DNA of 3,405 nucleotides from Enterobacteria phage M: the sequence record JX625144; one strand, written 5' to 3'. Below the pieces are notes generated by a model. It searched no databases, was not told where the DNA came from, and saw only the letters and a list, made by a program, of their open reading frames with translations. Positions 1 to 3,405 of the stretch are shown piece after piece. Made by a program: the position numbers and the translations under genes. How positions within the stretch are numbered: position 1 is the first letter of the stretch; each line of letters opens with the position of its first letter.

Positions 1-89
1 GAGGTGGGACGACCTCTCGGTCGTCCTATCTACACATAATGTGTAGGTCCCGTTAGGGCCTATGCTCCCTCACAATGGAGGTTCCATAG
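1..89 (+). other. 5' untranslated leader with two stem-loops: an 8-bp stem 7-14/19-26 (GGACGACC/GGUCGUCC, loop UCUC) and a 7-bp stem 30-36/40-46 (CUACACA/UGUGUAG, loop UAA)
   Basis: Perfect inverted repeats read directly from the sequence. The G-rich 5' end followed immediately by a stable hairpin is the usual levivirus 5' terminus (template for minus-strand 3' end). GGAGG at 76-80 lies 9 nt upstream of the first ATG. Confidence 0.6.
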
Positions 90-1277
90 ATGTATATTGA
101 TGTTACTTCCCCTGTGTCTGAGACATGGTCCGGTACGTGTACCGTCCATCGCCCTGCGGATAAAGGGGGACCTTACCAGAAGACTATCTCTGGGAAAGTG
201 ACGACTTTATCCTCATCGCGAGCTACTTCCTCGGGAAAGAAGGGAACTGTGGTTATTGCCGGTGAGACGATACCTTGGGCATACCCAAGGCCGTACTCAC
301 GTTGCATTACCCAGCGAACCCCCCTCGGAGGTAGTTTCGAGCTAGTTGTTGACGGTTATCCGGCGACTCTCTTTGGTCGTATACCATCGGAGACGATGGT
401 TACGCCTGGAGGTTCGTCTGTTACCATAAAGAGAATTCCTAATGTAACGGACTTCTCTGGTTTACCAACTATCTCAAGAAACGAACGATCGCGTAACTAT
501 GCGTCGTTCGCCGACTCGTTTAATGACGGGTCGGAACTCGCGAATGCTGCCCTTGAGTTTGGTGACAATATCGCTCTCCTCGCTAATTTAGCGACGAGCG
601 TTATGTACTTCTACCGCGGGGTACGACACGGGTCTATTTCTGATCTTAATCGTGCCTTCGGCGGAGGAAAGATTCGTAGTGTCTCTAAAAATGCGTCTTC
701 ACGCTACTTAGAGTATATCTACGGTATCCAACCCACTCTCGATGACATTCATTCGACCTTTGAGGTACTAAAGAATACTCCTCTGTCGAATCTCATTGCT
801 AGGCGAAAACGCATGTTTACGCTTGACCGTGAGTTCTCCGACGGTGGATTCCGCTTTAGTGGTAAGTTACATCACCAAGTTGGGTGTCATTATTGGTTTG
901 ACTCGCCTGAGCTTCATAATATGAGCTCATTGGGTCTTATCAATCCTGCACTCATTGCTTGGAATGCTGTACCTTACAGCTTCGTACTGGATTGGGTCCT
1001 ACCGATTGGTAGTCTCCTAAATTCGCTCACCGCATATGCGGGTGCGAACTTCATTTCCGGGTGGGATACTCTCTACCTGGAAGGAACCTGTACGTGTGCT
1101 CCTCGTTATTCGTCACTATCGGCCTCCTGGCCGACAGCGTCCTCTCTTATCACGATAAAAGCGATGCGTCGACAGGCCCTTGCTGGGTTTCCCCGGCCGT
1201 TGCCTTTCGTCAAAAATCCTTTATCGACCACTCACCTTGTAAACTTTGCCGCCATGTGGCGTCAGCGTTACAAATAA
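90..1277 (+). CDS. mat: Maturation (A / attachment) protein, 395 aa
   Basis: First long ORF at the 5' end of a levivirus-organised genome. ATG at 90 is preceded by GGAGG (76-80) with a 9-nt spacer; stop TAA at 1275-1277. Size (395 aa) is typical for levivirus maturation proteins. Assignment rests on gene order and size; I cannot verify homology by eye. Confidence 0.85.
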   Translation: MYIDVTSPVSETWSGTCTVHRPADKGGPYQKTISGKVTTLSSSRATSSGKKGTVVIAGETIPWAYPRPYSRCITQRTPLGGSFELVVDGYPATLFGRIPSETMVTPGGSSVTIKRIPNVTDFSGLPTISRNERSRNYASFADSFNDGSELANAALEFGDNIALLANLATSVMYFYRGVRHGSISDLNRAFGGGKIRSVSKNASSRYLEYIYGIQPTLDDIHSTFEVLKNTPLSNLIARRKRMFTLDREFSDGGFRFSGKLHHQVGCHYWFDSPELHNMSSLGLINPALIAWNAVPYSFVLDWVLPIGSLLNSLTAYAGANFISGWDTLYLEGTCTCAPRYSSLSASWPTASSLITIKAMRRQALAGFPRPLPFVKNPLSTTHLVNFAAMWRQRYK

Positions 1278-1304
1278 CCGGCTTTGCCGTCAAAGGTATT
1301 TATT

Positions 1305-1706
1305 ATGCCTCAGCTCCAACCGCTGGTCCTCAAAGACCGTGCAGCTACACCAAAAGATCGTACCTTCTCTCCTTTCAATATTGAAGGAGGCGTTGGCTAC
1401 CTTGTTGAACGTACAGGGATTCCTGCGGGCGATAACACGTTTTCCATCTCCAGCCGTAAAACCGCTGGCGGAAAATACCGTGCTACCATCAAATTGATGA
1501 TGCCCGTGGTAACGACCAACCAATCGGTCAATGGAGTTACGGTTGTAACTTCTGAACGAGTGGCGGTTGCTACTTTGGAATTCCAGTTTGACGCTCGCTC
1601 TACTGAGCAAGAGCGTAAAGACCTGGTTAGCCTGATTCAGAGTTCTCTGGACCCGGCTAAATCTTTAGTCAATGACGCTGTTGTCAAACTGGAAGGCGTA
1701 TACTAA
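1305..1706 (+). CDS. cp: Coat (capsid) protein, 133 aa
   Basis: ATG at 1305 with AAGG (1293-1296) 8 nt upstream; stop TAA at 1704-1706. The ORF track begins this frame at an in-frame TTG (1284), but the ATG with SD is the more plausible start. Length of 133 aa and central position are typical of levivirus coats. The sequence (MPQLQPLVLKDR...FQFDARSTEQERKDL...VVKLEGVY) resembles PRR1/Qβ-type coat proteins as I recall them, including the C-terminal Y. Confidence 0.92.
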   Translation: MPQLQPLVLKDRAATPKDRTFSPFNIEGGVGYLVERTGIPAGDNTFSISSRKTAGGKYRATIKLMMPVVTTNQSVNGVTVVTSERVAVATLEFQFDARSTEQERKDLVSLIQSSLDPAKSLVNDAVVKLEGVY

Positions 1707-1727
1707 GTATTCGCCCTTTTACCCATA

Positions 1728-1745
1728 ACATAGGAATAACCATGT
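1728..1745 (+). promoter_or_regulatory. Putative translational operator hairpin spanning the replicase start codon (coat-protein binding site)
   Basis: ACAU(1728-1731) pairs with AUGU(1742-1745), A1732 is unpaired (bulge), GG(1733-1734) pairs with CC(1740-1741), loop AAUAA (1735-1739). The replicase AUG (1742-1744) sits in the 3' arm. The architecture mirrors the MS2 operator (ACAUGAGGAUUACCCAUGU: lower stem, bulged A, GG/CC, A-rich loop). Confidence 0.6.
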
Positions 1746-3304
1746 CTCGGAAAAGAAGAGTAACAATAAGTACTAGTCAATTCCACGTTCAGCTCGACGA
1801 GCAGTGGGTCCTCCGAAGGATCTCCGAATCACTCGATTTGAGTGATTTTCGGAATAGCTATCTGGTAAAGTCTTTACTTTCCAAATATGCTGCGCCATCG
1901 AAGGAAAGTGCCCGGGCTCGCCAGAGGGCAGCTATCGCTAAACTCTTATGGACATCTCGTCGCAATCGCGACACAGAGTATCGTTTGCTTCGACGCGATA
2001 GTAAGCAGGATTTTATGTTCTTGCTCACACGCGAAGTTGCAAATCTACTCGGTGATGTCCCTGAGTTTGAAGGTTTATCATCTTTTAGTGGGGGTGCTTC
2101 GACACGACATCGTCGTGGTAAAAGTCAACCTCAAGAAAAGTTTGATGGATATGGCGATACGACTGCAAGCAACTTACCGTTAGCCCGAAAGAGTATCCTA
2201 GCCTCACCTGCTTGGAGCTGCAATTCCGCAGTATCCACTGGTGGGACTTTAGAACTCCGACTGGTTCCTGGTAATGTTGTTTTCACTGTACCTAAGTCTA
2301 ATGTTATAGATCGGGCTGCTGCTAAAGAGCCTGACCTGAACATGTACGTCCAGAAGTTTTATGGAGATCATATCCGTGGCCGGCTACGCCGGTTTGGTAT
2401 AGACCTCAATGACCAAGGACGTAATCGTGATCTTGCCCGCCAGGGTAGTATCACGGGAGACTTAGCGACTCTCGATCTTTCAAGTGCTAGTGACTCTATA
2501 ACAAGGATCCTTATGCTCGAGGTATTACCTCCTGCCTGGTTCGATGTTTTAGACCGTGCTCGCAGTAGATGGACTAATGTGAACGGCGTTTACCGCCAGC
2601 TACATATGTTCTCTACTATGGGTAACGGGTTCACTTTCGAACTTGAAAGTCTGTTATTCTTCGCTGTTACCAGAGTTACTCTGAAAATGCTAAATATTCA
2701 GGGTACTATCGGTATATACGGAGATGACATAATCTGTCCGACATCCGCTGCACGCGAGGTTGTAAGTAATCTCGAGTACATCGGGTTTAAGACAAATATC
2801 GATAAGTCGTTTATCGAAGGACATTTTCGGGAGTCGTGTGGCGGCCATTATTATAAAGGCCGTGACGTAACTCCCTTCTACATTCGCAGTCCCTTAAACA
2901 ACATCCAGAGAATAATCTGGCTGCTGAATAAGATTCGCGAGTGGTCCTCCGAAGGAACAACCATTGCCGTTGAGCTAGAGGAATTATATTTTGAAATATA
3001 TAATAAATTTAGCATTCTGCGTTCTCTTACTGGTTGCGGGGGACTCGATAGCATATCGAGTCTCGCAATACCTGGCGCCTTTGGTGGATACCTTCACCAA
3101 GTGACACGTAGAGTCGCAGTCAACGAAGATGGCGCGTATGTCCAAGCCCTCCTTAAAGGATCTCCGTCTGATACTCTCCGGTTCGTTTCTGTTGAAACAA
3201 GTCGTTATGAGATTAGACAGTGGTCCGATAAGGTAAGACCTGACATGTGTCGTTCCTTGTACAGTAATGGTCGTATGGTCTATTTCCTAAGGGAAATAGG
3301 CTAA
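1742..3304 (+). CDS. rep: RNA-dependent RNA polymerase (replicase beta subunit), 520 aa
   Basis: Longest ORF, 3'-proximal as in all leviviruses. ATG at 1742 with AGGA (1732-1735) 6 nt upstream; stop TAA at 3302-3304. Contains the catalytic motif [11 protein letters not shown] (YGDD encoded at 2717-2728) and an upstream D-x4-D-like region (DLSSASDS), as expected of levivirus replicases. Confidence 0.95.
2991..3104 (+). CDS. Candidate single-gene lysis protein, 37 aa, embedded in the +1 frame of the replicase gene; UUG start
   Basis: Translating frame 0 myself: TTG(2991) AAA TAT ATA ATA AAT TTA GCA TTC TGC GTT CTC TTA CTG GTT GCG GGG GAC TCG ATA GCA TAT CGA GTC TCG CAA TAC CTG GCG CCT TTG GTG GAT ACC TTC ACC AAG TGA(3102-3104) gives [43 protein letters not shown] (2977-2982) lies 8 nt upstream of the TTG. 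Residues about 4-22 ([19 protein letters not shown]) form a hydrophobic stretch long enough for one transmembrane helix, the hallmark of levivirus lysis proteins. No canonical lysis ORF exists at the coat/replicase junction, so a lysis gene must be elsewhere. It is too short to appear in the ORF track. Confidence 0.6.
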
Positions 3305-3405
3305 CACCAAACTCGCCCGCAAGGGTGCCCCTAACGGGGGGGGTCTCATCACTCCTGATGAGATTTTGTTGTTACGGTAGATTGCTATGCTACCGTAACA
3401 CCCCA
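3305..3405 (+). other. 3' untranslated region with stem-loops: a 5-bp stem with GCAA (GNRA) tetraloop at 3314-3327, an 8-bp stem 3344-3351/3356-3363 (loop CUCC), and a terminal 10-bp stem 3371-3380/3390-3399 (9-nt loop), followed by ACCCCA-3'
   Basis: Inverted repeats read directly: GUUACGGUAG/CUACCGUAAC, UCUCAUCA/UGAUGAGA, and CGCCC/GGGUG with one G-U pair. A 3' terminal hairpin followed by unpaired ...CCCA is the conserved levivirus 3' end recognised by the replicase. A G8 run at 3336-3343 also lies in this region. Confidence 0.7.

Follow-up and report, generated by a model that had tools for sequence, protein, structure and literature searches.

The 3405-nt window as the complete genome of Enterobacteria phage M, with a lysis gene nested in the replicase gene

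Introduction

The stretch of DNA letters analyzed here, 3405 nt long and hereafter called the window, raises the question of whether it is an entire single-stranded RNA phage genome, as an initial annotation had claimed, or a fragment of a DNA replicon. Leviviruses package a linear single-stranded RNA genome of ~3.4-4.3 kb in a T=3 capsid. A levivirus virion attaches by its single maturation protein to a conjugative pilus, which for phage M is rigid and IncM-encoded, through which its RNA gains entry to the cell. Translation begins with the coat gene, and the replicase beta subunit, together with host proteins, copies the RNA from its 3′ CCA end. A complete genome of this kind, its termini and even an unusual nested lysis gene can be recognized from sequence alone.

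Results and Discussion

Identity and completeness of the genome

The window is the complete plus-strand RNA genome of Enterobacteria phage M (Empivirus allolyticum, Fiersviridae, GenBank JX625144), shown as cDNA from position 1 to 3405, an identification that we consider practically certain. An exact-sequence look-up found the maturation, coat, replicase and lysis proteins (1085 aa in total) to be identical to AFU61979.1-AFU61982.1 and YP_007111573-YP_007111576. The source genome of these reference proteins is 3405 nt long, exactly as the window, and NCBI taxonomy assigns its taxid, 1235640, to Empivirus allolyticum, Fiersviridae. This genome has already been published, from RNA that was extracted from CsCl-purified phage and reverse-transcribed (Rumnieks & Tars 2012, PMC3561173), and nothing in the window is new. 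That paper describes a lysis gene at 2991-3104 that starts at a UUG preceded, nine nt 5′ of it, by GAGG, the U1 loop, a UUUUGU linker and an AGCAA motif ~1215 nt upstream, and every one of these landmarks was located in the window at exactly the published coordinates. Likewise, the published 3′-end primer maps to nt 3072-3091, as in the paper, and the lysis-cloning primers to 2950-2969 and 3083-3102. Taken with the exact proteins, the length and the gene coordinates, these primer positions and UTR motifs identify the window as published phage M. From the length, the sites of three primers and the UTR motifs given in the paper, we infer that the window also matches JX625144/NC_019707 base for base in the 252 non-coding nt and at synonymous sites.

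The gene content is that of a levivirus. As initially annotated, the maturation, coat and replicase genes follow one another on one strand (90-1277, 1305-1706 and 1742-3304), each with its Pfam family scoring above the curated cut-off. Together they fill the plus strand, on which all features given below lie, and the longest ORF on the minus strand, which overlaps the coat gene, has 106 aa. The 3405 nt begin with a G and a hairpin, position 2 being A and not G, and end with a hairpin followed by CCA. Against a phage collection that lacked the phage M record, megablast and blastn gave no near match; blastn aligned only a replicase-gene segment of ~140-190 nt to MS2 and AIN002, with 68-72% identity, and megablast returned zero matches to any DNA phage. 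In the protein searches at E up to 1e-5, the replicase matched 1590 records, the maturation protein 586 and the coat protein 103, nearly all of them Leviviricetes RNA phages, so that the database search that had been proposed as a check on the levivirus assignment came out in its favor. A handful of protein matches belonged to RNA viruses whose record names derive from the plant pathogens Plasmopara and Erysiphe. A scan of the window against Rfam, at E up to 1, matched no family, which shows only that the operator and UTR elements lack curated models there.

Two other readings of the window were weighed. That it might be a DNA replicon fragment, or an element outside the leviviruses that merely resembles one, has nothing in its favor except that the sequence was supplied as DNA letters, and we give it the least credence of all: the matches are almost all Leviviricetes, megablast found no DNA phage, the proteins are exactly those of an RNA phage, and three genes fill the plus strand while minus-strand ORFs stay at or below 106 aa. 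Scarcely more probable is that the window represents a separate natural strain, or a close relative, of phage M instead of the published isolate. M-like sequences do occur in metagenomes (clusters at 90% identity comprise 6-17 sequences drawn from JGI, ENA and Logan), two uncultured contigs, L001 (JGI 3300066765) and L002 (SRR17030294), share 89-90% nucleotide identity with the window, and the comparison with the phage M reference was one of proteins and landmarks. Yet L001 and L002 differ from it at 4-6% of residues in the three large proteins and at 6-14% in the lysis protein, whereas all 1085 residues of the window equal the NCBI phage M entries, its length is exactly 3405 nt, and every primer and UTR motif of the paper lies where the paper puts it. 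The window thus stands as an entire single-stranded RNA phage genome, that of published phage M, as its four exact proteins and length attest; phage M itself had gone unrecognized in the initial annotation.

Genome termini and 3′ untranslated region

Both termini had been described as intact, with a G-rich 5′ end forming a terminal hairpin and a 3′ hairpin followed by CCCA, and the present data agree. In the predicted fold, the 5′ end (GAGGUGGG...) forms a GC-rich hairpin of 13 bp at 2-31, in which 2-14 pair with 19-31 around a UCUC loop at 15-18. The first 30 nt reach -20.2 kcal/mol (z = -4.8), a stability equaled in 0 of 200 shuffles. The 5′-terminal hairpin of leviviruses is implicated in RNA replication. 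At the other end, an 11-bp hairpin pairs 3370-3380 with 3390-3400 and is followed by CCCCA (z = -4.8 for the last 40 nt). Both ends of the window align in register with those of MS2, PRR1, C-1 and Hgal1, all four of which end in CCA, and the 5′ hairpin is drawn in Fig. 3A of PMC3561173. In that study, both ends were mapped by experiment, the 5′ end by cDNA tailing and the 3′ end by poly(A) tailing of the RNA. The two ~90%-identical contigs cover 14-3375 and 10-3335 of the window, and no related contig reaches past either of its ends.

The window starts with GAGG, whereas MS2, PRR1, C-1, Hgal1 and L007, a contig of a sister lineage, all start with GG. That all five related 5′ ends examined read GG against GA in the window, that the terminus was read from dA-tailed cDNA clones and that nt 1-9 are covered by no independent contig leave some room, albeit little, for an imperfectly recorded 5′ terminus, for instance a true GGG in which A2 arose from cDNA tailing or from one clone; the direct determination of the published ends, and a hairpin that from nt 2 on is in register with that of MS2 (GGGUGGGAC... 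vs. GAGGUGGGAC...), make this improbable. A one-base error of this sort would leave the conclusion of completeness unchanged. As a minor possibility, the GA start may be real and reflect an unusual end recognition by the M replicase.

The 3′ UTR (3305-3405) folds at -45.1 kcal/mol (z -5.6), in agreement with its description in PMC3561173. The fold comprises hairpins U4 (3314-3327), U3 (3328-3339), U2 (3344-3363) and U1 (3370-3400, loop AUUGCUAUG; also in PMC3561173), the long-distance helix ld IX, in which GGGG at 3340-3343 pairs with CCCC at 3401-3404, and an unpaired UUUUGU linker (3364-3369), also reported in PMC3561173, the last nucleotide being A3405. In PRR1, PRRlime, C-1 and Hgal1, the 3′ UTR follows the same plan as in M, the unpaired linker replacing hairpin V (PMC3561173). 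Two pairs of U2 carry compensatory changes in L001, from U-A to C-G at 3349/3358 and from C-G to U-A at 3350/3357. An AGCAA at 2168-2172, 1214 nt away, is the putative partner of UUGCU (3382-3386) in the U1 loop, with which it may form the Qbeta-like long-distance pseudoknot proposed in PMC3561173; the AGCAA is kept in L001 and L002, both of which end before the U1 loop.

Maturation, coat and replicase genes

The maturation (attachment) protein of 395 aa (90-1277, exact to AFU61979.1) matches Pfam Phage_mat-A at 3.9e-19, and its best relatives share only 25-29% identity. As the attachment protein, it would bind both the IncM pilus and the genomic RNA. The initial annotation had suggested a conjugative-pilus-specific phage of broad-host-range plasmids, and according to the literature phage M does depend on pili of broad-host-range IncM plasmids.

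The coat protein of 133 aa (1305-1706, exact to AFU61980.1) matches Levi_coat at 1.4e-05, with a score of 25.6 bits that barely exceeds the Pfam cut-off of 25 bits. It had been called PRR1-like. This is right insofar as it groups with PRR1, C-1 and Hgal1 and has the PRR1 coat protein as its nearest solved structure (2vf9, E 4.8e-36), but PRR1 is not uniquely closest, since identities are 52.6% to Hgal1, 50.7% to C-1, 50.4% to PRRlime and 49.6% to PRR1.

The replicase gene (1742-3304, exact to AFU61981.1) encodes the RNA-dependent RNA polymerase's catalytic beta subunit, 520 aa long. The profile search advised for it returned Pfam RNA_replicase_B at 8.6e-117 (391 bits), and the YGDD motif already noticed lies at residues 326-329 (nt 2717-2728). 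Over 81-83% of its length, the protein shares 48% identity with the replicases of PRR1 and PRRlime. A hidden upstream extension of its frame was rejected, for there are 11 stops inside the coat gene, the last at 1673. Around the replicase AUG, 1728-1745 forms a putative translational operator hairpin with a bulged A at 1732 and an AAUAA loop at 1735-1739, of which A1738 lies four nt 5′ of the AUG. Its predicted architecture is that of the MS2, PRR1 and C-1 operators, its sequence is identical in L001 and L002, and it is drawn in Fig. 3B of PMC3561173; taken alone, the hairpin is no stabler than shuffles (z -0.64). By structural analogy, 1728-1745 would be the coat-protein binding site. Coat dimers would bind this hairpin over the AUG, which would switch replicase synthesis off and may nucleate packaging.

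The phages to which M is most readily compared are PRR1 (Perrunavirus olsenii, IncP), PRRlime, C-1 (IncC) and Hgal1 (IncH). They share with M the maturation-coat-replicase order, conjugative-pilus specificity, the type of the putative operator hairpin and the 5′ and 3′ terminal hairpins, and are 50-53% identical to it in the coat protein and 42-48% in the replicase. In contrast, their maturation proteins are only 25-29% identical to that of M, their genomes are 118-168 nt longer, and they belong to other genera. M lies outside Perrunavirus: identities amount to 48% for the replicase, 49.6% for the coat protein and ~29% for the maturation protein (PRRlime), and NCBI gives Empivirus as its genus.

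The nested lysis gene

The initial annotation had placed the lysis function inside the replicase gene. The gene in question, lysM/sglM, is a hydrophobic ORF of 37 aa (2991-3104, exact to AFU61982.1) in the +1 frame relative to the replicase gene; it starts with UUG and is preceded by a GAGG Shine-Dalgarno motif at 2978-2981, 9 nt 5′ of the start. Cloning showed the ORF to have lytic activity (PMC3561173), which establishes the nesting. The UUG sits in the loop of an AU-rich stem-loop at 2974-3013 (-10.0 kcal/mol, z -2.6; Fig. 2B of PMC3561173), whose sequence is identical in L001 and L002.

LysM has been studied in depth. Its sequence agrees at all 37 residues with chains 9ukv_B and 9nu4_B, named "Lysis protein", of two deposited structures (PDB 9ukv and 9nu4), and it inhibits the lipid II flippase MurJ, with which a cryo-EM complex has been published (PMC12506998). 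Experiments on M have shown that its release uses this membrane peptide of 37 aa, whose translation begins at a UUG in the +1 frame inside the replicase gene: LysM wedges into MurJ and locks it in the outward-facing state, so that export of peptidoglycan precursors stops and the cell lyses. LysM is a template for MurJ-directed antibacterials.

At the coat-replicase junction of the window, no hydrophobic ORF of at least 25 aa reaches the junction, and the authors of PMC3561173 likewise saw no lysis gene there. The only candidates, 1061-1384 and 1246-1497, both end well upstream in the coat gene, the 3′ part of which has stops in both alternative frames. M therefore lacks the junction lysis gene of the Perrunavirus type: the annotated lysis genes of PRR1, C-1 and Hgal1 straddle the end of the coat gene and the beginning of the replicase gene, whereas that of M sits 1250 nt into the replicase gene. 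In phiCb5, the lysis gene also lies entirely inside the replicase gene, although its product is longer than LysM and has two helices (PMC3561173). The phiCb5 lysis protein and SglPP7, a lysis protein that also targets MurJ, are, like LysM, small membrane peptides read from an alternative frame, but have no sequence similarity to it and are of independent origin.

L001 and L002 both retain the lysis ORF, with all six residues that alanine scanning identified as essential. In these two contigs, third-codon positions of the replicase gene are conserved at 0.90-0.95 within the lysis overlap vs. 0.71-0.74 outside it, which points to signs of purifying selection on the overlapping gene in these ~90%-identical relatives. 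In the nearest sister lineage (Logan contigs L007 and L008), the replicase is 51% and the maturation protein 37% identical to those of M. A LysM homologue at the equivalent site was sought there and rejected, as the +1 frame begins MKYT... and stops after 9-12 codons; an equivalent closed frame was already observed for the M/Beihai25 pair by Chamakura et al. 2020. Whether the LysM ORF is open only in the narrow M lineage is, judging from these frames, an evenly balanced matter. If it is, the birth or the loss of a peptide targeting MurJ would be dated to within one genus.

Sources of the small genome size

The window had been placed at the small end of the leviviruses, and indeed its 3405 nt made phage M the smallest Leviviridae genome known at publication in 2012 (PMC3561173), which makes it of interest along with its targeting of plasmids that carry antibiotic resistance. 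MS2 (Emesvirus zinderi) has the same architecture as M. The 5′ ends are nearly identical (GGGUGGGACCCC... vs. GAGGUGGGACGACC...), at both 3′ ends a U1 hairpin precedes ACCCA or CCCCA, and the MS2 operator and the putative one of M both have a bulged A. Unlike M, MS2 is F-pilus specific and has an L gene that overlaps both the coat and the replicase gene, and its DNA similarity to M is limited to ~140 nt of the replicase gene (71%). Its genome exceeds that of M by 164 nt, owing to longer UTRs and to a replicase with 25 more aa.

Nesting of the lysis gene and a short 520-aa replicase had both been proposed as causes of the small size; the replicase does contribute, and the nesting was rejected by a length accounting against MS2 and PRR1. 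Of the 164 nt saved relative to MS2, 40 fall in the 5′ UTR, 70 in the 3′ UTR and 75 in the replicase gene, with 21 nt gained elsewhere. Likewise, the authors of PMC3561173 saw the UTRs as the main source of the saving over phage GA. The small genome of M is thus due to short UTRs and to shorter replicase and maturation genes. Nesting saves almost nothing, since the saving falls in the UTRs and the replicase gene while the coat-replicase spacer is practically unchanged, at 35 nt in M vs. 33 nt in MS2.

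A complete genome, re-identified as that of phage M

The initial annotation read the window as an entire levivirus genome with the gene order mat-cp-rep and a YGDD replicase. Every feature it described was found, and the interpretation was correct. On the plus strand, the maturation gene (90-1277, 395 aa; Pfam Phage_mat-A, E 3.9e-19) is followed by the coat gene (1305-1706, 133 aa; Levi_coat, E 1.4e-05, a score barely over threshold at 25.6 bits vs a cut-off of 25) and the replicase gene (1742-3304, 520 aa; RNA_replicase_B, E 8.6e-117), with YGDD at replicase residues 326-329 (nt 2717-2728). 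The proposed nesting of the lysis function within the replicase gene also held, as a hydrophobic ORF of 37 codons with a UUG start lies on the same strand at 2991-3104, in the +1 frame. In leviviruses, the maturation protein serves attachment to the conjugative pilus, the coat protein builds the capsid, and the replicase β subunit acts together with host factors.

An NCBI look-up returned exact sequence matches of all four proteins to their phage M counterparts (maturation, coat, replicase, and lysis; AFU61979.1-AFU61982.1 and YP_007111573-YP_007111576), which lie on a 3405-nt contig, the length of the window. Phage M is taxid 1235640, Empivirus allolyticum (Fiersviridae, Norzivirales, Leviviricetes). 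The published M genome has 3405 nt and was the smallest Leviviridae genome then known (Rumnieks & Tars 2012, PMC3561173). In the same paper, the lysis gene spans nt 2991-3104 and begins with UUG, preceded at a distance of nine nt by GAGG; this Shine-Dalgarno sequence occupies 2978-2981 in the window. The 3'-end primer, published as nucleotides 3072-3091 (PMC3561173), falls exactly there, and the two lysis-cloning primers map to 2950-2969 and 3083-3102. The linker UUUUGU and the loop AUUGCUAUG of the 3' UTR hairpin U1, as quoted in PMC3561173, agree with the window. We infer that the window is base-for-base identical to JX625144; it is a re-identification of an already published, well-studied genome.

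Both termini are intact

The 5' terminal hairpin that had been claimed is a GC-rich stem of 13 bp between 2-14 and 19-31, and folding of nt 1-30 gave -20.2 kcal/mol (z -4.8). At the other end, where a terminal hairpin and CCCA had been described, an 11-bp hairpin (3370-3400) precedes a terminal CCCCA; z is -4.8 over the final 40 nt and -5.6 over the entire 3' UTR. That both termini are intact is supported by experimental mapping, since the authors read the 5' end from cDNA clones tailed with dA and reached the 3' end by RT-PCR on poly(A)-tailed virion RNA (PMC3561173). It is also supported by the register of the window ends with those of MS2, PRR1, C-1, and Hgal1. In these four phages, as in M, the 5' hairpin starts no more than a few nucleotides in, and the genome closes with a U1 hairpin plus a tail of 4-5 nt whose last three are CCA. 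Finally, neither of two uncultured M-like contigs, L001 (3362 nt, 89.1% identity, covering 14-3375) and L002 (3325 nt, 90.0% identity, covering 10-3335), reaches beyond the window ends; both stop inside. L007, a contig of the nearest sister lineage, has its own 5' hairpin from nt 1. We noticed that the window starts with GAGG vs GG in five of five related ends (MS2, PRR1, C-1, Hgal1, and L007). None of the independent M-like contigs extends to nt 1-9, which leaves the second base dependent on one published determination.

Genome size and relationship to PRR1

The small size had been attributed partly to the nested lysis gene and partly to a short replicase. The MS2 genome is 164 nt longer than that of M, which is shorter in the 5'UTR (-40 nt), 3'UTR (-70 nt), and replicase (-75 nt) and longer in the maturation gene (+6 nt), coat gene (+9 nt), and two spacers (+6 nt). 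PRR1 is 168 nt longer, M differing in the maturation gene (-66 nt), replicase (-60 nt), coat-replicase spacer (-19 nt), 5'UTR (-16 nt), maturation-coat spacer (-14 nt), coat gene (+3 nt), and 3'UTR (+4 nt). The replicase does contribute. By the same accounting, moving the lysis gene can have saved no more than a few tens of nucleotides, and nesting does not explain the compactness; a lysis gene overlapping other genes is common to MS2, PRR1, and M alike.

The coat protein had been called PRR1-like, and its nearest solved structure is indeed the PRR1 coat (2vf9). However, PRR1 is not uniquely close, coat identity being about equal for Hgal1 (52.6%), C-1 (50.7%), PRRlime (50.4%), and PRR1 (49.6%). 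Strictly speaking, M is not a PRR1-type phage: its genus is a different one, no lysis gene was found at its coat-replicase junction, and its maturation protein shares <30% identity with any relative.

The lysis protein LysM

The lysis mode of M is experimentally defined. Expressing the region around the lysis ORF lysed E. coli (PMC3561173), and the target that LysM blocks is MurJ, the lipid II flippase; in a cryo-EM structure at 3.09 angstrom, LysM sits as a wedge between TM2 and TM7 and locks MurJ outward-facing (PMC12506998). The window peptide is identical to PDB chains 9ukv_B and 9nu4_B at 37/37 residues. In both M-like contigs, the lysis ORF, UUG start, Shine-Dalgarno sequence, and start hairpin are all intact, and each keeps all six residues essential by alanine scanning (N6, L13, L14, D18, I20, and P30). 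Replicase third-codon identity in these contigs is 0.90-0.95 within the lysis overlap vs 0.71-0.74 elsewhere, a pattern consistent with selection on the overlapping lysis frame.

RNA structures in the 3' UTR and at the replicase start

The predicted U2 hairpin (3344-3363) is supported by two compensatory changes in L001, U-A to C-G at 3349/3358 and C-G to U-A at 3350/3357; its loop changes from CUCC in the window to GUAA. AGCAA, proposed as the pairing partner of the U1 loop UUGCU and published as lying ~1215 nt upstream of it (PMC3561173), was found at 2168-2172, 1214 nt from UUGCU at 3382-3386. Both M-like contigs keep AGCAA amid varying flanking bases, and both end before the U1 loop.

Around the replicase AUG, nt 1728-1745 fold into a hairpin in which A1732 is bulged and the loop is AAUAA, with A at -4, as in the operators of MS2, PRR1, and C-1. 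The hairpin is unchanged in L001 and L002, and its stability is no better than chance (z -0.64). By analogy, it would be bound by the coat protein and act as a translational repressor and packaging signal. Immediately upstream of this fully conserved hairpin, both contigs carry clustered substitutions at 1710-1721, and L002 has a one-base deletion at 1720, in the coat-replicase spacer.

M-like and sister lineages

M has been described as the sole IncM-specific RNA phage isolate. M-like genomes are present in JGI metagenome 3300066765 (L001) and Logan assembly SRR17030294 (L002). Our database search returned one cluster of at least 90% identity to M, the next sequences (P0030 and P0031) being at 51-52%, above PRR1-like sequences; as judged from these identities, this shows that the M lineage is isolated. 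This next group is the sister lineage, which shares 51% (replicase), 37% (maturation protein), and 48% (coat) identity with M. At the position equivalent to LysM, no open LysM-like ORF was present in its contigs L007 (3031-3147) and L008 (2795-2911), where the +1 frame is closed after 9-12 codons (MKYTISFLF and a stop in L007, MKYTTSFPFCT and two stops in L008). A remnant of this type has been reported for Beihai25, in an already published comparison with M (Chamakura et al. 2020). Within the 5' half of the replicase gene, L007 (2075-2461) and L008 (1812-2066) have in common a hydrophobic alternative-frame ORF (LVHFRLMLSLLPHS...), a possible candidate for the lysis gene of the sister lineage.
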